Shown here in pieces: positions 3,628-31,520 of a stretch of DNA of 42,805 nucleotides (its first letter is position 1; every line of letters begins with the position of its first letter). Origin of the DNA: Escherichia phage Shy. Made by a program: the position numbers and the translations under genes. The stretch lies in the sequence record OR996328; one strand, given 5' to 3'. The notes beneath the pieces are model-generated. The model made no database searches, was not told the origin of the DNA, and saw only the letters and a list, made by a program, of their open reading frames with translations.

Positions 3628-4728
3628 ATGGCACGCGTATTATTGAATCGGAACCCGCCAAACGCGAAACGTTTGTTCGACGTAATCACGCGCCAACAAA
3701 TCTACGTCGAAGGCGTAAAGCTGTCGGAAGCGAACACGTTTCGCAAAGTGGTTCAAGAACTGTCGGACGAATTCCGCCAACTGTTAAGCCGCTTGCAATA
3801 CAGTACGCTTGACGGAATGACCAAGGCGGAACTTAACCGGTTTATCGTGACGCTTCGTAAATCGCAATCGAAGATTTACAACAAGTACACGCAAGACCTG
3901 TTAGACCAACTTTACGCATTCATGCGAACCGATAAGCGCGTATCGCTTCGCGTTTACGGCGCGTTGGTTTCGGATAGCGACGACGTAACGGAAGACGAAG
4001 CCGACGACCTGTTGCAACAGTCGAAAGACGAATCGTTGTTCGTGCCGCTATTCGGTTGGGCGTCGCTTGCGCGGTCGGAAGACGGCGATTCGCGGTTGTG
4101 GTCTACCATCGCGAACAACCCGATTCCGGCTAACGGCCTGTTGCTTGGCGCGTTTATCGCCGGGTTCAGCAAGTCGGCGCAAGCCGCAGTCGAAAACCTG
4201 ATTCGTCAAGGTTGGGCGAATCAATGGACGGTTAACCAGACCATCGCCGCGATTACGGGCAACCGTGGCGCACTCGACCGCATTTACAGCCAGAACACCG
4301 CAGTAACAGCAACCGTTATTCAGCATATCGCCCAAAGCGTCGGGGCCGCCGTGTCGTCGGCCTTTGCGGGGCGGTATCGTTGGGATTCGATAATCGACAA
4401 TGCGACGACCGAAATTTGCCGGGGGCGTAACCAACGTGTTTACGTCTTCGGAAGGGGGCCACTTCCCCCGGCGCATATTCGGTGCCGTTCGCGCATTACG
4501 CCGATTTTCGGAAACGGCCCGACGGATGGTGACGGAAGCGACGAAACGTTTTATACTTGGTCGCGTCGCCAACCTGAAAGTTTCTTGCGCGACGCATTTA
4601 CGAAAGAAGCGGCCGACGCGCTAACCAGCGGTAAGGCACGCGCAAAAGACTTCACCGAATACCGGGCCGAAAAACCCGTATCGGTTGAACAGTACGCCGA
4701 CAAAGTGTCGGATATTTTGAAACGCTAA
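3628..4728 (+). CDS. head morphogenesis protein (Mu gpF / SPP1 gp7-like)
   Basis: 366 aa. It contains TTEICRGRNQRVYVFGRGPLPPAHIRCRSRITP, which matches the Cys...PP.H..CRC signature of the Phage_Mu_F family. It follows the portal gene. Confidence 0.8.
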   Translation: MARVLLNRNPPNAKRLFDVITRQQIYVEGVKLSEANTFRKVVQELSDEFRQLLSRLQYSTLDGMTKAELNRFIVTLRKSQSKIYNKYTQDLLDQLYAFMRTDKRVSLRVYGALVSDSDDVTEDEADDLLQQSKDESLFVPLFGWASLARSEDGDSRLWSTIANNPIPANGLLLGAFIAGFSKSAQAAVENLIRQGWANQWTVNQTIAAITGNRGALDRIYSQNTAVTATVIQHIAQSVGAAVSSAFAGRYRWDSIIDNATTEICRGRNQRVYVFGRGPLPPAHIRCRSRITPIFGNGPTDGDGSDETFYTWSRRQPESFLRDAFTKEAADALTSGKARAKDFTEYRAEKPVSVEQYADKVSDILKR

Positions 4729-4744: not shown

Positions 4745-5446
4745 ATGGCGCTGAAACTCAAAATCACTAAAGAAGTTTTCGACAAGCTGTCGGATGCCGT
4801 CAAAGCCGAATACTTCGAAAAAGATGGCGAATACCATCTTGACGTTGACGGACTGGAAGATACCGGCGCACTTCGCCGCGCAAAAGACCACGAAGTCAAA
4901 CAGCGTAAAGAAGTCGAAGGCAAGTTGCGCGACGCCGAAGAACAAATCGCAACGCTTACCAGCGAAGTTCAAGGCAACGCCGCCAAGTTCGATAAAGAAC
5001 TGAAAAAGCAACTTGGCGAGAAAGACGGCCAGTTGACGAAGGCGAACGCGTTTATCCAATCGACTTTGGTTGATTCGGTCGCAACCAAAATCGCAACCGA
5101 AATCAGTACCGCCCCGGCGTTGCTGATTCCCCACATTAAGGCCCGTCTTACCGCTGACCTTAGCGGCGACGCCCCGGCTACCAAAGTCCTTGGGGCCGAT
5201 GGTAAACCGTCCGAAACGACCATCGAACAACTTACCGCCGAATTTGTTGCCAACAAGGATTTTTCTGCTATTATCCGGGGTAACAAAGCGTCCGGGGGCG
5301 GTGCCCCTAAGACTGGCGCTTCTGTCAACGGCGGTGCCGGTAAGTTCAACAACGATTCCGACAAACCCGCCGACCTGTCGAAACTGAGTCCCCGCGACCT
5401 TGCGGCCCGGATTCAGGCGCAGAAGGCGGAAGCAAACAACCAGTAA
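4745..5446 (+). CDS. scaffolding protein
   Basis: 233 aa, charged and helical (K/E/A-rich), located immediately upstream of the major capsid gene. Confidence 0.6.
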   Translation: MALKLKITKEVFDKLSDAVKAEYFEKDGEYHLDVDGLEDTGALRRAKDHEVKQRKEVEGKLRDAEEQIATLTSEVQGNAAKFDKELKKQLGEKDGQLTKANAFIQSTLVDSVATKIATEISTAPALLIPHIKARLTADLSGDAPATKVLGADGKPSETTIEQLTAEFVANKDFSAIIRGNKASGGGAPKTGASVNGGAGKFNNDSDKPADLSKLSPRDLAARIQAQKAEANNQ

Positions 5447-6493: not shown

Positions 6494-6991
6494 ATGAATC
6501 TCAAACAACCGAAAATCATTTTCTTTATCGACGGGCCTGTTCCGTCGGAAGCCGAAAAGCTGGACGCTTTCGATTTGGGCGTCCCGGTTCAGTTCCGCAA
6601 CGCGCAACACGTTAGCCGCATCGAAGAAGAATGCGACGGCGTTACCGGTCACGTACCCGAAGCGTACAAAGACCATCCGACGGCCGAAGACGCTTTGAAG
6701 GCGTACAAAGCCGAAGTGAAGAAAGCGCGTGCGAAACTGCTGGAAGTCGGCGGCAAAGCCCCGAAACCGGGCGAATCGACCGAAACCGGTAACAAGACCG
6801 GCGACGGCGACAAAAAGGACGGCCAGCAAGGGGCCGCAGCGGGCCAAGGTGACGCGAACGACGGCAAGGGCGGGCCTACCCCTACCCCGACCGAAGAAGA
6901 CCCCGCCAAGGCCGCCGCAGCCGCCGCAGCGGGCGCACCTGCAACCCCGGCTAAAGGCACCCCGGCCGCTAATGGCTGGAAACAGAACTAA
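6494..6991 (+). CDS. hypothetical head-region protein with A/P/G/T-rich low-complexity tail
   Basis: 165 aa. The first ~55 aa resemble the N-terminus of the next ORF (KIIFFIDGPVPSEAE...RN...CD...VPEAYKD). The C-terminal half is low complexity (GDGDKKDGQQGAAAGQGD...PTPTPTEEDPAKAAAAAAAGAP). Confidence 0.55.
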   Translation: MNLKQPKIIFFIDGPVPSEAEKLDAFDLGVPVQFRNAQHVSRIEEECDGVTGHVPEAYKDHPTAEDALKAYKAEVKKARAKLLEVGGKAPKPGESTETGNKTGDGDKKDGQQGAAAGQGDANDGKGGPTPTPTEEDPAKAAAAAAAGAPATPAKGTPAANGWKQN

Positions 6992-6996
6992 GGCCG

Positions 6997-7032
6997 TGCC
7001 CGATGCCGACGGCTTATTGTGGGCATCGGGCA
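6997..7032. other. 11-bp perfect inverted repeat (hairpin) between head genes
   Basis: TGCCCGATGCC (6997-7007) pairs with GGCATCGGGCA (7022-7032) across a 14-nt loop, with no U-tract. It embeds a TGTGGGCA copy at 7018-7025. Confidence 0.6.
7018..7025 (+). repeat. TGTGGGCA motif copy
   Basis: ttatTGTGGGCAtc, intergenic, within the hairpin at 6997-7032. Confidence 0.9.
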
Positions 7033-7052
7033 ATTGACAAGGAATCTATTCG

Positions 7053-7514
7053 ATGAAAGTTCTTTTCTTTACGTCCGGTGCGGTGCCGACTACCGACGAA
7101 CGAAACGCGATTGCGGCTATCGTCGCCGGTAACGTTGACATTCTGGTTCGCAACGGCGCGGCAAACGCTGAATACGGGGCCGACCGTCTGGAACCGTGCG
7201 ACTACGTTTTCGACAATGCGAACATTCCCGACGCATACGCCGATGTTCCGACGACCGACAACCCGCATATTCCGGCGAACGGCGCTATCGTCACCGACGG
7301 CCAAGCGTTGAACGTTTCGAACAGCGCGGGCGACGCCTTTGTCGCTTCGGCGATTCACGTTGCCGACGGCGTGGCCCAATGGGCGAACCTTCCGGCGACC
7401 CATGCCCTAGCCGTATCCGGTGAACTTACCGGCATCGCGGCAACTGGTACGGGCACCAAAGTAACGCTAACCGTTACCGACGGCAAGATTTCCGCCGTCG
7501 CGCTGTCGGCGTAA
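7053..7514 (+). CDS. hypothetical head-region protein, paralogous N-terminus to 6494-6991
   Basis: 153 aa. The N-terminus MKVLFFTSGAVPTTDE...VRN...CDYV...IPDAYAD aligns with the preceding ORF. The C-terminus is T/G/A/V-rich and looks beta-rich. Confidence 0.55.
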   Translation: MKVLFFTSGAVPTTDERNAIAAIVAGNVDILVRNGAANAEYGADRLEPCDYVFDNANIPDAYADVPTTDNPHIPANGAIVTDGQALNVSNSAGDAFVASAIHVADGVAQWANLPATHALAVSGELTGIAATGTGTKVTLTVTDGKISAVALSA

Positions 7515-8448: not shown

Positions 8449-8909
8449 CGACGAACTATTCGGATGCGAAAGATTCGATTTACGGCCGCGTGAAAGCGGC
8501 TATCGACGGGCCGGTCGCCGCGCTACTCGGTTACAAAGCCGAAACGCGTTGGCCGTATGTGGCGGAACCGAACAAGCCGAATACCGAAAAGATTTGGTTT
8601 CGCGTTTCGTCGCAGATTGTCGAAGAACAGCAAATCACGCTGTCAACTTGCGAAGGTGCGCCGGGCCAAAAGAAATACGAAACCGTCGGCGTACTTATCG
8701 TTGAAATGTACATGCCGAAGGCCGTTCGCGATTCGGGCGTGAAAGGGGGCAAAGCCGCCGCAATGATTCGGGATGCGTTCCGAAACGCGCCAAGCGGTGA
8801 AGCCGGTATCTTCTATTACCGTGCGCGTATTAATGACGGTATCGCGCCCGAAGAACTGTTTTATCGGTTGAACGTCGTAACCGAATTCGAATACGACGAA
8901 ATTAAATAA
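8445..8909 (+). CDS. tail terminator / tail completion protein
   Basis: 154 aa, immediately upstream of the major tail gene. It resembles DUF4128-type tail terminators by recollection only. Confidence 0.45.
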   Translation: MTTNYSDAKDSIYGRVKAAIDGPVAALLGYKAETRWPYVAEPNKPNTEKIWFRVSSQIVEEQQITLSTCEGAPGQKKYETVGVLIVEMYMPKAVRDSGVKGGKAAAMIRDAFRNAPSGEAGIFYYRARINDGIAPEELFYRLNVVTEFEYDEIK

Positions 8910-26124: not shown

Positions 26125-26355
26125 TTAGAATGGAATGTCGAAGTCATGTTGCGCACAACCGTTAACCAATACTTCGGGCGGCGGTAATGCGTCGTAATAG
26201 TTGCATTTCGGCGGCGTATCCTTGTTCTTAGGGCAACCGTTTTGCGACCAGTGTTCGCAGTTCAAGCAAGTTTGAAGAATCATTGCGCCTTGCATTTCAA
26301 CTTGCAATGCGATTCGCAATTCGGCCTTACGGCGTAGTTGTTCGTTAATATTCAT
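26125..26355 (-). CDS. small Cys-rich protein ending in an SSB C-terminal-tip-like DFDIPF
   Basis: 76 aa with CLNCEHW...GC...C...C. The C-terminus ...GCAQHDFDIPF* was verified on the DNA (GAC TTC GAC ATT CCA TTC TAA on the minus strand). Confidence 0.6.
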   Translation of the reverse strand: MNINEQLRRKAELRIALQVEMQGAMILQTCLNCEHWSQNGCPKNKDTPPKCNYYDALPPPEVLVNGCAQHDFDIPF

Positions 26356-27988
26356 AGCTCATAATCTCCGGGTACTTTTTGTTAACCCAAACCTTGACCT
26401 TTGACGGAATCCGAAGATTCGGCGACCAGTCTACGGCCTGTTGTGCGGTCGGGAATTCGTCGCCGTCGTAACCTGTACGCGCCCGCCACCAATCCCGCGC
26501 CCGCTTTCCGGCGAATCCGCTATGTTCCAAACAAATAAATTCCTTGAACATCCGAATACCGCAGAAATACGAAACTTTCATCATATCCGGCGCACCTTCT
26601 TTTTGATGCAACGAATACAAGACCTTTTGAACGTCGAAGTATTCGACTTGCGGGAAGTCCGACCGCAATAACGCTTCTTCCGATGCACCGGCAAACAACT
26701 TCGGTTCGAACTTGAATTCGTGACCACAACCCGACGGGGTAGGGAACGGCGAACCGCCGCACCAACGGGCCGACGCGTGGTTGTAGCAACCGCAATTGTC
26801 GCAGATACGAACCGGCGCATCGCCGCCACCTTTACCGGGGCGCTTCGGAATAACCGGGTCGTTGATTGGGCCAAGCCGACGGGTATTACCGGCGAAGTCC
26901 AATACCAGACAATTCGACTTGACGTAATCGAAGCCGGGAATATATGCGGCGAAGTCCGGGTTATATGGACGCGTTCCACGACCCAGCATTTGCACCCAAA
27001 GGCCCGGCGAAAGCGTCGGCCGCATCATGCCGATAAGGTCTATCGGGGGATGGTCAAAGCCGGTCGTAAGTACGCCGTTGTTCACGATGCAACGCACGTT
27101 GCCCTTTTTGAACTGCGCGATACGGTCGTCGCGTTCTTTTGTGGGCATCTTGGAATGAACCGCGACCGCATCAATACCGAATGCGACCATCGTTTCGGCA
27201 ACGTGTTCGGCGTGCTGAATACCCGACGCGAACGTTAGCCAGCAATTCCGGTCGTAACCCTTTTCGACCATTTCGGAAACGCATTTATACGTTATTTCGT
27301 TTTGGTCAACGGCGCGTTCTAACGCCCCTTGCGCGTATTCGCCGCCGTGCAAGCCGACCGACGACAAATCGAATTCGGTTGCGGTAGGCTTTGCGATAGG
27401 CGGGCACAAGAACCCTTCGGCCAACAGGCGGTTAAACCCGTCGATATCCGTAAGGTCGTAACAAATATCGGTGAAGATTCCGTTATCGGTTATATACCCC
27501 ATTTTCATACGATACGGGGTTGCGGTCAAACCGATAACTTTTAGGTACGGATTGATTAAACGCAAGTGTTCGATAATCTTGTTATACATTGACGATTCCT
27601 TGTCGCTTAACAAATGGCATTCGTCAATCAAGATTAAATCGCGGTGCCCGAAAGCGGCGACGTTATTAACAACCGAACCGACGCCACCAAAGATAATTGG
27701 TTGCGCAACGTCTTTCGCTTTCAGGCCAGCGGAATAAATACCGATAGGCGCACCGGGCCAGATTTGAACCAGCTTCGCGGCGTTCTGTTCGATAAGTTCT
27801 TTTACGTGCGTCAACATCAACACGCGTTGCCACGGCCAAGCCATGAAAACGCGGCGTATGAATTCGGCGATTACGATAGACTTACCTGTTCCGGTTGGTA
27901 ATGCGACAACGGGGTTCCCGTCGTTACCGGCTTCGAAATAGTCTTTGATGCTGTTAATCGCTTCGTCTTGATACCAACGCAATAACAT
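26345..27988 (-). CDS. superfamily-2 DNA helicase (DEAH-type) with C-terminal zinc-ribbon region
   Basis: 547 aa. Motifs read: ALPTGTGKS (Walker A), LIDECH (motif II), GLTATP (motif III), QMLGRGTR (motif VI), and CDNCGCYNHASARWC. Confidence 0.8.
   Translation of the reverse strand: MLLRWYQDEAINSIKDYFEAGNDGNPVVALPTGTGKSIVIAEFIRRVFMAWPWQRVLMLTHVKELIEQNAAKLVQIWPGAPIGIYSAGLKAKDVAQPIIFGGVGSVVNNVAAFGHRDLILIDECHLLSDKESSMYNKIIEHLRLINPYLKVIGLTATPYRMKMGYITDNGIFTDICYDLTDIDGFNRLLAEGFLCPPIAKPTATEFDLSSVGLHGGEYAQGALERAVDQNEITYKCVSEMVEKGYDRNCWLTFASGIQHAEHVAETMVAFGIDAVAVHSKMPTKERDDRIAQFKKGNVRCIVNNGVLTTGFDHPPIDLIGMMRPTLSPGLWVQMLGRGTRPYNPDFAAYIPGFDYVKSNCLVLDFAGNTRRLGPINDPVIPKRPGKGGGDAPVRICDNCGCYNHASARWCGGSPFPTPSGCGHEFKFEPKLFAGASEEALLRSDFPQVEYFDVQKVLYSLHQKEGAPDMMKVSYFCGIRMFKEFICLEHSGFAGKRARDWWRARTGYDGDEFPTAQQAVDWSPNLRIPSKVKVWVNKKYPEIMSYEY
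27140..27147 (+). repeat. TGTGGGCA motif copy
   Basis: ctttTGTGGGCAtc, antisense to the helicase CDS. Confidence 0.9.
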
Positions 27989-28960
27989 TTAGTCTTTCCC
28001 GTTGATAATTGGTTTCCATTGGTCGCAAGCCTGTTTAATTTCGGCTTCGCCGGGAATAATTGCGTTCCATTGTTCGCAAAACCATCGCGCATTATCAACC
28101 GGCCGGGCCTTCACGCACGAACGGCAATTCTTTTCCGGTAATTCGCCTTTGTGGCAAATGCCTTTATAGTTGCAAAACGAACAAGGAACTTGCGCCGGGC
28201 TGGCCGAAATCTTCGGCATTGGGGTTTGACTTGCGATAACCTTTTCGGCCTTCTGAAACTGTTGTTCGCCAAGGCGCATATTTAGCGGTACGATTTCGAT
28301 ATGCAAGTCGTCGTCGTTCTTGTTCACGTTCAAGTAAACAACGAACCGGAAGTTATACGCATAGCCATACGTCGAAGTTTGCGCGAAGTGTTGCGGCTTC
28401 GAAAGCATCATGCCTTGTTCGCCCAACTTGTTAAAACCGGCCCCGGTTCCGTTGGTCTTGAACTCGCACAACATCGCTTCTTCGATACCGTAATGCGGCG
28501 GCAACTTGATAATACCGTCAAGCGAACCGCCAAAGTGCCCCATTGCGCCGGAAATACGGAATTGCTTTTTCCCCTTGTCTTCTTCGCTGGCGTTCTGGTC
28601 GTCGAATTCCCACACTTGGCACCCGATGCCGCGCAAGTATTCGATAAAGGTTGCTTCTTCACGGTGCCCGCGCTGGAACAGGCGCAACATGCGGCCCGTA
28701 AACTTTTCATGTTTCGCCCAACGGAAATGCAACCAAAGTTTTTGCAAGCAATCGTCGCCGATAAGCGATGCGCCCAAATGCGAACGCGGGCCAGTGTCGT
28801 AAGTTGCGACCGCCCATTTTTCGATATCGTCTTTCAGTCGGTTAGCTACCAACTTAGCGACGCCGGGTTGCATTAAGTCAACGCTTACGCTTGCGGTCTT
28901 TTCCGCTGTTTCGTTCGTATTCGCGTTGTTCCCGAAGATTTCGTTTTGCTGTTCGCTCAT
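27989..28960 (-). CDS. PD-(D/E)XK exonuclease, Cas4/RecB-like, with Cys cluster
   Basis: 323 aa. DGIIKL...LCEFKT gives a D...E.K core. An N-terminal C (GDDC) plus C-terminal PCSFCNYKGIC fits a Cas4-type 4-Cys cluster. The start is uncertain: ATG 28960 overlaps the upstream gene by 83 nt, and the alternative ATG 28873 has a weaker SD. Confidence 0.65.
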   Translation of the reverse strand: MSEQQNEIFGNNANTNETAEKTASVSVDLMQPGVAKLVANRLKDDIEKWAVATYDTGPRSHLGASLIGDDCLQKLWLHFRWAKHEKFTGRMLRLFQRGHREEATFIEYLRGIGCQVWEFDDQNASEEDKGKKQFRISGAMGHFGGSLDGIIKLPPHYGIEEAMLCEFKTNGTGAGFNKLGEQGMMLSKPQHFAQTSTYGYAYNFRFVVYLNVNKNDDDLHIEIVPLNMRLGEQQFQKAEKVIASQTPMPKISASPAQVPCSFCNYKGICHKGELPEKNCRSCVKARPVDNARWFCEQWNAIIPGEAEIKQACDQWKPIINGKD

Positions 28961-29393
28961 TTTTACGCGCCTTACGTCGTTCGATGATTTTTTCGTTTGC
29001 GGTGAAATGCTGGTTACAGATTTCGACCGCCCGTTGTAATTGGTCTTTCGACAACCAAGAAATATGGCAATCGTCCGACGCGATACCCAATTCGCCCGCC
29101 AACCAGTCGTAAGCGTGCGAACGCGACATTAACTTCGACTTCCAAATCGGGTCGAATGCGTCATGTACCTTTTGCCGTAATTGGCGCGTTGCCCGGTCGG
29201 CCATGCGACCAAGCGGGATAATCGTTCCGGGGTGACAGCCGACGGCCGCTTTGCAGTCGTGGCAATAATAGATTTCGGGCCAATCCCCGAATAGCCGACC
29301 GTAAATTCGGTCGTTTTGCGTTTGTTCGATGTTGACCGAACCGCAGTTATCGCAATGCGCCGGTATGGGCAATGCGTCTTCGACTTGTGACAT
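28878..29393 (-). CDS. zinc-ribbon protein with basic C-terminal tail
   Basis: 171 aa. CDNCGS...CHDCKAAVGCH gives a 4-Cys ribbon. The C-terminus is K/R-rich (ERRKARKNERTAKRNLREQ...DRKRKR). Confidence 0.55.
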   Translation of the reverse strand: MSQVEDALPIPAHCDNCGSVNIEQTQNDRIYGRLFGDWPEIYYCHDCKAAVGCHPGTIIPLGRMADRATRQLRQKVHDAFDPIWKSKLMSRSHAYDWLAGELGIASDDCHISWLSKDQLQRAVEICNQHFTANEKIIERRKARKNERTAKRNLREQREYERNSGKDRKRKR

Positions 29394-29420: not shown

Positions 29421-29438
29421 AAGGGGCCGAAGCCCCTT
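29421..29438 (-). other. intercistronic stem-loop after the SSB-like gene
   Basis: On the minus strand AAGGGGC, TTCG loop, GCCCCTT, followed only by a weak T-run. This is an attenuator or RNA-stability element rather than a full terminator. Confidence 0.45.
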
Positions 29439-29453
29439 ACCGTTGATTGCGAC

Positions 29454-30263
29454 TTAGCGCGGTTGGCCCCAAGCCGGTTGGCCGCCGCCGTTGCCTTGGT
29501 TCTGGTTCCAGCCGCCGCCGTTGCCTTGCTGCTGGCCTTGGTTGCCCTGCTGGTTGCCTTGCCAGCCGCCGCCCTGCTGGTTGCCCTGCTGGCCGTTGTT
29601 GCCGTTGTTCTGGCCCCAACCCGGATTACCGCCGCCGTTGTTCTGGCCTTGGTTCTGGTTGTTGCCGCCGTTGTTATCCGGCATCGGAACGTTGTTCGCG
29701 ACCTGCGATTGACCGCCCCAACCGGCGTTGTTACCGCCGTTGTTTTGCTGCTGGTTCTGGCCGCCGTTCTGTTGCTGGTTGCCCCACGAACCGCCGTTGT
29801 TACCGGCTTGGCCGCCGTTGTTCTGCGCGGCTTGACCGTTGCCGTTGGCGTGGCCGGGTTCGTTACCGTTGATATCGAACACGCGTTTTACGTCGGTGTA
29901 CTTGTTCGGGTTCGGTTCTTTCTGCAACCCGACTTCGACCATAAACGGGATGTTGTGCAACTGTTGCGAATCTTGCACTTGGAACACGCCGGTAACGTGG
30001 CACAAAGCCGACAACTGTTTGTGCGCGATTTCGACGGTTTGCGGGTTGGTATGGTACAGGTTCAGGCGGTAAGCGCCGACCGCGCCTTTGTTCGGGCCGT
30101 CGATAACCTGCAAGTCGAATTGCAGATAACCGGAATCGTTATCCTTGGTCGGCTTTACTTCCGACTTGATAGCGATAACCGGATGCTTGCCGATAGGCAA
30201 ACCGCCGACGCCTTGGGTCGGGTCTACGTTACGCGCGTCGAACGCTTGCATCAATTGAGCCAT
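29454..30263 (-). CDS. ssDNA-binding-like protein (DUF669-type position) with ~140-aa G/N/Q/W-rich disordered tail
   Basis: Start moved to the ATG at 30263 (SD AAGGTAG). The ~125-aa N-terminal folded part lies next to the Sak4-like ATPase, as in many phage recombination modules. The tail resembles the bacterial SSB linker (GGWGQ...) but ends ...QPAWGQPR with no acidic tip. Confidence 0.6.
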   Translation of the reverse strand: MAQLMQAFDARNVDPTQGVGGLPIGKHPVIAIKSEVKPTKDNDSGYLQFDLQVIDGPNKGAVGAYRLNLYHTNPQTVEIAHKQLSALCHVTGVFQVQDSQQLHNIPFMVEVGLQKEPNPNKYTDVKRVFDINGNEPGHANGNGQAAQNNGGQAGNNGGSWGNQQQNGGQNQQQNNGGNNAGWGGQSQVANNVPMPDNNGGNNQNQGQNNGGGNPGWGQNNGNNGQQGNQQGGGWQGNQQGNQGQQQGNGGGWNQNQGNGGGQPAWGQPR

Positions 30264-30319
30264 TTTGTTTCTACCTTTTCGAAAAGTTCCGACAATCAAA
30301 CCGTGTCGAATTCGGTTAT

Positions 30320-31000
30320 TTACGACATTGCCTTTTTGAACAGTGCCGTTAAATCTGGTTGTTCCAGTTCGTTAAGCCGACCGCTTCGGTCGCGTGGTGC
30401 GTTGATTCCGAAGGTTGGTGCGGTGCGAATCGCCAACACTTGCGATTGTACACCGGGAACCGTCGTCTTTGCAACATGCCCGATTAGGTCGTACAAGTGC
30501 GGAACCTGAATCCCCAATTCTTGACCGGGGAAATACGGTTTCTTAACTTGCGTGCCTTCTTCTTCGGCCATCGCCTGTTTCGCAATCAAATACGTGTGTT
30601 TCTGTTGCATGTAGTACAAGCCGGTAAGGTGGTCTAGTACCTTTCGGGCCATTTCGCCGTAAGCCTTGCGGCCGTCGCGGTTGCGTTTCAATTCGGCTTT
30701 CACGACGATTTCGGCCAGTTGCGACACTGAATCGACGCCGACGGTATCGAAACCTTTGGATTCATTCGACCGAAACAGCCAATCGAAGAATTCGTCGATT
30801 CGTTCAACCGTTGGCGCTTCCCATGCGGGAACCGTCGAACCGCGCATCGACAACATACCCGGTTCGGTAATCAGCAATACCGGGCGCGGTGCGGTGTTGA
30901 TAAGCGGCGTCTTACCCGAACCGGGCGGCCCATAGGCCAACATCTTGACGCCGTATTGCCGGGCGAAATCCCCGGCCGGTCGTAAGTCGCGTGTTTGCAT
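30320..31000 (-). CDS. Sak4-like / AAA_24 RecA-fold ATPase
   Basis: Walker A is LAYGPPGSGKTP. Start moved to the ATG at 31000 (SD AGGTGA 6 nt upstream). The track start at 31084 would overlap the upstream gene by 32 nt. Confidence 0.7.
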   Translation of the reverse strand: MQTRDLRPAGDFARQYGVKMLAYGPPGSGKTPLINTAPRPVLLITEPGMLSMRGSTVPAWEAPTVERIDEFFDWLFRSNESKGFDTVGVDSVSQLAEIVVKAELKRNRDGRKAYGEMARKVLDHLTGLYYMQQKHTYLIAKQAMAEEEGTQVKKPYFPGQELGIQVPHLYDLIGHVAKTTVPGVQSQVLAIRTAPTFGINAPRDRSGRLNELEQPDLTALFKKAMS

Positions 31001-31052: not shown

Positions 31053-31520
31053 TTAACGTTTTTCTTTCGGTGCGACGATTTCAACCGACGGCGTACCGTC
31101 CGAAATCTTCAACACTTCGTCAATAATTTTCTTGAACTTCGGTTCAAGTTCGTTGTATTCGGAAACCGAAAGTTCTGGCTTCCATTTGACCAGACGGTTC
31201 GCGACGAACTGACCTTCGGGGCCAACCTTTTCGATTTTCGACAGCGCCTTATCGACGGCATCGTCTTTGTTGTTCAGGCTGTAATTCAGCTTGAACACGG
31301 CTTTCAGCTTGTAGCCGTTCGCCAAATCGACGTTTTTGGTGCCGGAAAGACCGGCGTTGTTCGGAAACATGCGGTCTACCATCGCCTTACGGGCCGCCGC
31401 TTCAATCGCTTTGAAGTGCGCCAGTTGTTTCGCCGCCGCTTCCCATTCGCCGATAAGCTGGTCGTTGGTTTTGGTGGCTTCGGTCGGCTGGCCCCATGCT
31501 TGCGCGTTGTTGTCGGTCAT
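31053..31520 (-). CDS. hypothetical protein (155 aa) preceding the ATPase
   Basis: Coiled-coil N-terminus. It occupies the slot held by Gp157-like proteins upstream of Sak4-type ATPases; this is recollection and low certainty. Confidence 0.55.
   Translation of the reverse strand: MTDNNAQAWGQPTEATKTNDQLIGEWEAAAKQLAHFKAIEAAARKAMVDRMFPNNAGLSGTKNVDLANGYKLKAVFKLNYSLNNKDDAVDKALSKIEKVGPEGQFVANRLVKWKPELSVSEYNELEPKFKKIIDEVLKISDGTPSVEIVAPKEKR

Follow-up and report, generated by a model that had tools for sequence, protein, structure and literature searches.

A conserved tryptophan tip and evenly spaced tryptophans in the low-complexity tail of a DUF669-family SSB-like protein of Escherichia phage Shy

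Proteins with the Pfam domain DUF669 have been proposed to form a divergent family of proteins binding single-stranded DNA (ssDNA), termed SSBs, with an oligonucleotide/oligosaccharide-binding (OB) fold, linked to the SSB of phage N4 and bearing acidic C-terminal tails (Kazlauskas et al. 2016, PMC4889955). The SSB of phage HK620 (HkaK/Abc1), which is described as a DUF669 protein, binds ssDNA, and its last six residues are needed for the binding of Sak4 to SSB-coated ssDNA and for the stimulation of annealing (Hutinet et al. 2018, PMC5928155). Here we describe a 269-amino-acid (aa) SSB-like protein of the DUF669 family from Escherichia phage Shy (OR996328). The gene, defined by its open reading frame (ORF) and translation, occupies positions 29454-30263 (stop codon included) on the minus strand of the 42,805-nucleotide (nt) stretch analysed, which is termed the window and to which all coordinates refer unless another locus is named. 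The protein shares with the DUF669 family the hidden Markov model match, the OB fold and the Sak4 neighbour. In contrast to the acidic tails ascribed to the family, however, the C-termini of this protein and of 145 relatives are neutral or carry a charge of +1, and they present a tryptophan tip.

Two further systems bear on the C-terminal half of the protein. The linker of E. coli SSB comprises 56 aa (residues 114-170), is rich in Gly, Gln and Pro, contains W136 and F148, and drives condensation, which is tuned by glycines and by aromatic and basic residues (PMC12143593); the same linker also drives cooperativity (PMC12143593; bioRxiv 10.1101/797431). In phage N4, the C-terminus of the SSB (gp45) is functionally essential and activates the host RNA polymerase via the beta-prime subunit (PMC4496689).

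The C-terminal tip of the 269-aa protein (QPAWGQPR, residues 262-269) is encoded at 29457-29480 on the minus strand, with the codon of W265 at 29469-29471. Homologues were collected by a word-indexed search (444 close homologues), by an exhaustive HMMER search (4596 cluster representatives at E ≤ 0.001) and by tblastn (376 phage genomes), and 145 sequences of 35-70% identity were aligned. In this alignment, W265 is the one column of the protein that never varies. In 144 of the 145 sequences the terminal Trp lies within 0-6 residues of the protein's end; in the remaining one the distance is 10 residues. The tip consensus is (G/A)-x-P-P-W-G-Q-(R/K), and a terminal motif of the P-P-W-G-x-R/K type is present in all 145, with variants that include PPWAKK and PSWVKK; the last 10 aa carry a net charge of +1 in 106 of them. 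An acidic end with a terminal Phe was found in none of the 145 relatives. The sequence-only reading of this DNA had proposed that homologues with a normal acidic tip would expose an assembly or frameshift artefact in the Shy gene, and such homologues did not appear. Because W265 is invariant and the terminal motif is family-wide, the protein does have a tip, though of another kind, built around Trp. The earlier statement that the acidic tip is absent was therefore right, whereas the accompanying suggestion that the protein lacks a tip was not.

The motif extends beyond the aligned family. Nine more distant phage homologues with 26-60% domain identity, from Loki, Nipunavirus, Seuratvirus, Nonagvirus and Rosemountvirus and from Moraxella, Rhizobium, Achromobacter and Idiomarinaceae phages, also end in a Trp motif (PPWAQ, APWEE, KPWVRG, PPWQQ and PSWGQ among them), including those with tails of only 23-28 aa. 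A low-complexity tail is present in all 145 sampled relatives and in these nine. In phage T7, gp2.5 and gp4 share C-terminal tails, and by this analogy a Trp tip was sought on the other replication proteins of the window; none carries one, and three ORFs of the tail-fibre region that end in WG are taken as coincidence. The DUF669 family and the SSB annotation are already known, and the new part is the Trp tip together with the regular Trp repeats, for which no description was found in a limited search of the DUF669 literature (PMC4889955, PMC5928155, PMC8093625).

The tip terminates a G/N/Q-rich tail (residues 136-269; 29457-29858, minus strand) that is predicted to be intrinsically disordered. 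In an AlphaFold2 model built on the 145 relatives, the predicted local distance difference test score (pLDDT) is 35-50 over residues ~150-260 and reaches ~60 over the final nine. Residues 136-269 consist of 31.6% Gly, 25.6% Asn, 23.3% Gln and 4.5% Trp, and the slightly longer segment 129-269, to which the originally noted interval 29454-29880 roughly corresponds, contains 43 Gly, 36 Asn, 31 Gln and six Trp, with only three acidic and two basic residues. The six Trp are located at positions 160, 182, 216, 234, 252 and 265 in the units SWG, GWG, GWG, GWQ, GWN and AWG. The translation thus bears out the tail composition, the six units and the QPAWGQPR end as first read from the sequence. The five internal motifs lie within 29508-29786 on the minus strand (W160, 29784-29786; W182, 29718-29720; W216, 29616-29618; W234, 29562-29564; W252, 29508-29510). 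Across the family, 420 internal motifs give the consensus (P/G)(G/A)-W-(G/Q)(Q/G), which is looser and less proline-rich than that of the tip.

The Trp residues are enriched and regularly placed. Trp accounts for 4.0% of family tail residues versus 0.3% of residues in the folded domains, an enrichment of ~13-fold, and the number per tail ranges from 1 to 7 and rises with tail length (rho 0.62). The Trp-Trp gap in the family has a median of 18 aa, with an interquartile range of 15-22 and a minimum of 7. In the tail of the 269-aa protein the coefficient of variation of the aromatic gaps is 0.34 versus 0.75 after shuffling, a value as low being reached by 3.3% of shuffles. The aromatics are more even than in the tail's own shuffles in 98% of 140 family tails, and the smallest aromatic gap averages 12 in family tails versus 4.9 in shuffles. 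The tail therefore has evenly placed aromatics within an uncharged, polar, disordered region, and the sticker-spacer pattern proposed in the sequence-only reading is statistically real. The spacers themselves are N/G-rich in the window protein, in Pseudomonas phage Pavpe01, in Loki and in a few others, and rich in Gln, Pro, Ala and Gly in most relatives.

The likeness to the E. coli SSB linker drawn in the sequence-only reading is apt. In both proteins an OB fold is followed by a G/Q-rich, nearly uncharged disordered linker with Gly-flanked aromatics (GGWGQPQQ in E. coli SSB). In contrast, the OB folds belong to different families, and the phage tail is ~2.4-fold longer, is N-rich, contains six Trp rather than one Trp and one Phe, and ends in QPAWGQPR rather than DDDIPF. 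A similar pattern occurs in unrelated biology. The GW/WG 'Ago-hook' proteins and the FG/GLFG nucleoporins carry aromatic-Gly motifs at intervals of ~15-20 residues, set in disordered, uncharged sequence rich in Gly, Asn and Gln, where they act as multivalent pocket-binding elements or as cohesive stickers; these repeats resemble those of the 269-aa tail in pattern and share no homology with them.

The N-terminal domain (residues 1-135; 29859-30263, minus strand) contains no Trp in its first 128 aa. Residues 8-127 match Pfam DUF669 (PF05037) with an E-value of 5.7e-13 and a score of 49.6 bits (cut-off 21); at E ≤ 0.01 this was the only Pfam family found in the protein, and no Pfam SSB family was matched. 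The full-length protein, tail included, matches phrog_6015, 'single strand DNA binding protein' (2.8e-76), and the gene already carries an SSB annotation in one public record. The AlphaFold2 model has a pLDDT above 90 for residues ~20-135, and its order of elements, b1-b2-b3-helix-b4-b5, is the OB-fold topology. When the PDB was searched at the sequence level, neither the domain nor the family profile gave a true match, and the one hit was a spurious poly-Q match. The best solved structural match of the domain model is the ssDNA binder PrgE of plasmid pCF10 (PDB 8s4s, 8s4t; PMC11137577), at 12-14% identity and with no match at the sequence level. PrgE has a C-terminal segment of ~14 residues in place of a low-complexity tail, and it oligomerises via an N-terminal tail. 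The weaker structural matches are all OB-fold ssDNA binders (SSB, mtSSB, RPA, LEF-3, Cdc13, Teb1 and PRD1 P12), among which bacterial SSB structures are weak Foldseek matches (E 0.03-0.17). The label 'SSB-like' thus holds in terms of DUF669, phrog_6015, the OB-fold model and the PrgE match, but not in the sense of an E. coli-type SSB. The SSB identity is well supported by modelled fold, synteny and annotation, and ssDNA binding is the probable activity judging by the OB fold, the PrgE match and the HK620 and N4 literature.

The comparison with HK620 separates gene arrangement from tail chemistry. The HK620 SSB gene is directly downstream of sak4, as is the gene in the window, and the HK620 family is labelled DUF669 by NCBI. 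Unlike the tail of the 269-aa protein, HK620-type tails are short, charged and acidic, have a terminal Phe (NDYPPF, DGFTPF, DDDIPF) and are essentially devoid of Trp. A common 'Pro-Pro-aromatic' tip, as NDYPPF might indicate, is not supported, as most HK620-family proteins terminate in T-P-F, A-P-F, Q-D-F or I-P-F together with acidic residues. Some HK620-type, DUF669-labelled prophage proteins (e.g. P0382) end in PPMDFDDDIPF, which matches the tip of the host E. coli SSB. The presence of this peptide in proteins of temperate phages suggests tip capture or mimicry, contrasting with the clade that carries the Trp tip.

At the DNA level, the repeat that was reported to occur twice is the 18-mer GCCGCCGCCGTTGCCTTG, with plus-strand copies at 29481 and 29511, and the tail-coding region is filled with degenerate direct repeats that are 60-89% identical. 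Repeated 9-mers and 12-mers exceed those in a protein-preserving shuffle of synonymous codons (p ≤ 0.006), so the repeats share DNA ancestry and do not reflect composition alone; codon choice is also correlated between repeats. The longest exact repeat (18 nt) is unexceptional in the same shuffle (p = 0.48), and the region has no long perfect repeat. Tail length ranges from 33 to 147 aa in the alignment (median 98), with 23 aa in Idiomarinaceae phage 1N2-2 and 28 aa in Mcat17, each of these two with one Trp. In the sister species Pseudomonas phage Pavpe01 (PP179316), the domain is 92% identical, and the tail-coding region contains a perfect (ACCAGA)x9.8 array that encodes (NQ)10 (positions 5220-5278 of the Pavpe01 locus, L003). 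A perfect 55-nt tandem duplication (L003 5006-5115) frameshifts the DUF669 gene, for which the record annotates a truncated protein of 179 aa, and removal of one copy restores a 279-aa ORF that ends in APAWGQPR. Either the assembly is in error at this point or the duplication is genuine and yields a tail-less mutant. The Pavpe01 array and duplication indicate that slippage and duplication shape the tail region.

A different picture emerges on the time scale of isolates. The 3.7-kb stretch around the gene is 98.8% identical to Halfdan (MH362766, genus Lokivirus) and 98.6% identical to the 'Juelich variant', and the 269-aa protein is identical in all three isolates. All 12 variable sites among them are synonymous, as are the five located in the tail, and there are no indels. 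As ~21% of random changes would be synonymous, the chance of this outcome is ~8e-9 for the 12 sites and 3.5e-4 for the five in the tail. Because only synonymous changes and no indel separate the three isolates, the tail is not fast-evolving junk on this time scale. The expansion and contraction anticipated from the repeats is therefore seen between species, where tails span 23 to ~150 aa, but not among these isolates. The isolates that are near-identical over the 3.7-kb stretch (~98.6-98.8%; MH362766, PP954860) are reported from E. coli K-12 (Danish wastewater) and from Pseudomonas taiwanensis (German soil), the Juelich variant having been isolated on P. taiwanensis, and the hosts of all close relatives are Pseudomonas, Xanthomonas, Stenotrophomonas or Acinetobacter. 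Behind these mixed reports is a host range of unusual breadth or else a problem in how the hosts were assigned.

The gene belongs to a replication and recombination module on the minus strand with the order DUF7173 protein (31053-31520), Sak4, SSB-like protein, DUF3268 protein, Cas4 exonuclease, superfamily 2 (SF2) helicase, 76-aa protein, clamp-like processivity factor and DNA polymerase. Immediately upstream of the SSB-like gene is a Sak4-like annealase (30320-31000; Pfam AAA_24, 3.6e-17; phrog_124, 'Sak4-like'). Downstream are a DUF3268 zinc-finger protein (28878-29393; Pfam, 9.7e-35) and a Cas4-domain exonuclease (27989-28960; phrog_1990, 9.3e-99). The genome annotations contain no second SSB, and the 269-aa protein is the sole candidate. 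The DUF3268 and exonuclease ORFs share 83 nt (28878-28960, minus strand), and two public Halfdan records pick different start codons for the exonuclease. A terminator-like GC-rich hairpin (AGGGGCTTCGGCCCCTT; 29421-29437, minus strand), identified by a consensus scan only and followed by a weak T tract, lies 17 nt past the stop codon of the SSB-like gene; in the record of phage Loki, a rho-independent terminator is annotated at the corresponding place. Such a hairpin may raise expression of the SSB relative to the downstream genes.

The AAA_24/Sak4 gene is upstream of the DUF669 gene in all 10 other phage loci tested, with one intervening gene in 1N2-2. Among the loci examined, that of 1N2-2 (NC_025439, 34.8 kb) is the minimal version of the module, comprising Sak4, the DUF669 protein with a Trp tip, Cas4 exonuclease, SF2 helicase, a four-cysteine (Cys4) protein ending in VPF, primase and MazG; neither DNA polymerase nor clamp is annotated in this record. 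That 1N2-2 keeps the Trp tip without an annotated polymerase or clamp argues against these as obligatory partners of the tip. By analogy with HK620, the adjacent Sak4 is the leading candidate partner, and the Cas4 exonuclease, the SF2 helicase, the primase or a host protein are further candidates.

A peptide resembling the E. coli SSB tip does occur in the module, on a different protein. The 76-aa Cys4 protein (26125-26355, minus strand), whose gene directly follows that of the SF2 helicase and overlaps its end, terminates in DFDIPF. Its four cysteines (CxxC...C...C) and the C-terminal D-I-P-F are invariant in the comparison made for this protein. In all six species where the region was examined, a Trp-tip DUF669 SSB co-occurs with a Cys4 protein that is encoded after the helicase and terminates in acidic-x-(I/V)-P-F: DFDIPF in the window and in Pavpe01, EFDIPF in Xanthomonas phage Langgrundblatt1, EGEIPF in Pseudomonas phage Baskent_P4_1, EYDIPF in Vibrio phage VspDsh_1 and NEVPF in 1N2-2. 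Outside the window, the gene is at 8584-8847 in the Pavpe01 locus, at 7004-7225, ~3765-3965 and 6974-7186 in loci L007, L008 and L009, and at 26363-26728 (minus strand) in 1N2-2 (L020). Proteins of this type were found in 55 phage records by tblastn, the word-indexed search giving three matches. No Pfam match was obtained, and the AlphaFold model was poor (pLDDT 55) and was not used. Judging by sequence, these modules place the host-SSB-like tip on a small protein of its own and the Trp tip on the SSB, and the 76-aa protein may be an SSB-tip mimic or an adaptor.

The account we favour, with slightly better than even confidence, is that the 269-aa protein is a replication and recombination ssDNA-binding protein of the phage, with a DUF669-type divergent OB fold, paired with Sak4 and equipped with a Trp docking tip and multivalent Trp motifs. 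The N-terminal 135 residues would coat ssDNA, and the uncharged, disordered linker of ~134 residues would present a Trp-centred docking peptide (P-P-W-G-x-R/K; here QPAWGQPR). This peptide would replace the acidic DDDIPF tip of classical SSBs and serve as the handle for recruiting partners to SSB-coated DNA. Tip invariance, synteny and the HK620 precedent make Sak4 the most plausible recruit. The five internal (G/A)-W-(G/Q) motifs would be degenerate, evenly spaced copies of the handle generated by in-frame duplication. By analogy to the E. coli SSB linker, they may add valency as weak partner sites or as tail-tail contacts that raise cooperativity, or possibly promote condensation of SSB-ssDNA complexes.

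Several observations weigh against this account. The spacer sequence itself appears unconstrained, given how widely tail length (23 to ~150 aa) and composition (N/G-rich here, Q/P/A-rich elsewhere) vary. If the Pavpe01 frameshift is real, this phage propagates with a tail-less protein. Binding of the tip to Sak4 transfers from HK620 by analogy and synteny only, as the HK620-type tip is of a different class. Homology to HK620 SSB and to N4 SSB was not significant by BLAST, sequence-profile or profile-profile comparison (including hhalign for HK620 SSB), and only 23 of 63 HK620-type proteins match Pfam DUF669 at all, weakly and below threshold, with a best E-value of 0.0028. A limited literature search found biochemistry for neither the 269-aa protein nor any family member with a Trp tip.

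Some of these points lend themselves to an alternative account, possible though clearly less probable than the one we favour, in which function resides in the tip alone. The remainder of the tail would be a neutral, flexible spacer made by slippage, and the internal Trp motifs would be decaying tip copies without a role. The span of tail lengths, from the short tails of 1N2-2 and Mcat17 with one Trp each up to ~150 aa, the drift from Q/P/A-rich to N/G-rich composition, the Pavpe01 microsatellite and duplication, and the lower proline content of the internal motifs all agree with it. Neutral decay does not, however, readily explain why spacing is beyond chance in 98% of tails with no Trp-Trp gap below 7 aa, why Trp is ~13-fold enriched relative to the folded domain, why five of five tail substitutions among isolates are synonymous, or why long tails (median 98 aa) are usual. 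A Trp tip could instead bind the host RNA polymerase, as the N4 SSB does through the beta-prime C-terminus, such that SSB made during replication activates late transcription. N4 SSB resembles the 269-aa protein in having Sak4 directly upstream and a non-acidic C-terminus that combines aromatic, Gly and basic residues (SLFGKK, compared with P-W-G-x-R/K, PPWAKK and PSWVKK), and no RNA polymerase is annotated in Halfdan. Yet N4 SSB has a short tail without Trp repeats and a known partner in host beta-prime, the likeness rests on three or four residues, and homology between the two proteins was not recovered. The very diverse hosts would also demand an extremely conserved host target, although the beta-prime C-terminus is indeed conserved. 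This proposal is unlikely.

Two explanations concern the nature of the tail itself. The Q/N-rich sequence might act as a prion-like or amyloid domain, that is, a self-propagating aggregation switch. The richest 80-aa stretch, beginning at residue 169, holds 44 Gln/Asn and the tail is almost uncharged; the census threshold of Michelitsch and Weissman (2000) is reportedly 30 Gln/Asn per 80 residues. However, just 61 of the 145 relatives reach 30, most tails are rich in Pro and Ala, which disfavours amyloid, and 32% glycine with evenly spaced aromatics better fits liquid-like low-complexity domains. Heritable aggregation would also be of little gain to a lytic phage, and we regard a prion-like role as very improbable. 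Finally, the tail might be an assembly or frameshift artefact, or the true gene might be a long antisense ORF, as could be imagined for a low-complexity, GC-rich (64%) region with several open frames and with a frameshifting duplication at the homologous position in Pavpe01. The protein is nevertheless identical in three isolates, which differ only by changes synonymous in the minus-strand frame, the PHROG match spans the tail, and tail type and tip recur in all 145 relatives; an artefact is scarcely credible. The antisense ORFs at 29447-29872 (plus strand, 141 aa) and 29463-30509 (plus strand, 348 aa) were rejected as genes because the minus-strand frame is the only one in which the changes are synonymous, and the absence of stop codons in the antisense frames follows from the GGC/AAC/CAG codon composition.

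A broader and speculative extension of the favoured account, which we consider doubtful as a whole, is that a large clade of DUF669 SSBs swapped the acidic tip for a private Trp code, consisting of the P-P-W-G-x-R/K tip and internal W-G stickers. Such a code might insulate the ssDNA hub from the interactome of the host SSB and build a multivalent, condensate-like compartment for replication and recombination that recruits Sak4 and the exonuclease and helicase. The DIPF tip would have moved to the small, putatively zinc-binding protein, which might tap or block the partners of host SSB or bridge them to the phage SSB. Should the Trp code, together with the detached DIPF protein, turn out to replace the acidic-tip hub in a manner private to phages, the interest of the finding would grow considerably.

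Nearly all knowledge of how SSBs organise replication, repair and recombination derives from a single model, that of an acidic C-terminal peptide with a final Phe, to which this very large phage family, uncharged or basic, Trp-centred and multivalent in its sampled members, represents a chemically opposite second solution. A docking role, if confirmed, would make the tip a new short linear motif and a route to the partners of Sak4-type recombination modules, whose use in recombineering is of interest. With 23 to ~150 aa, one to seven Trp and varied spacers, the tails form a natural sticker-spacer series on which rules of SSB cooperativity and of bacterial or phage condensates may be tested. 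The co-occurring DIPF protein suggests that phages can separate the coating of ssDNA from contact with the partners of the host SSB.

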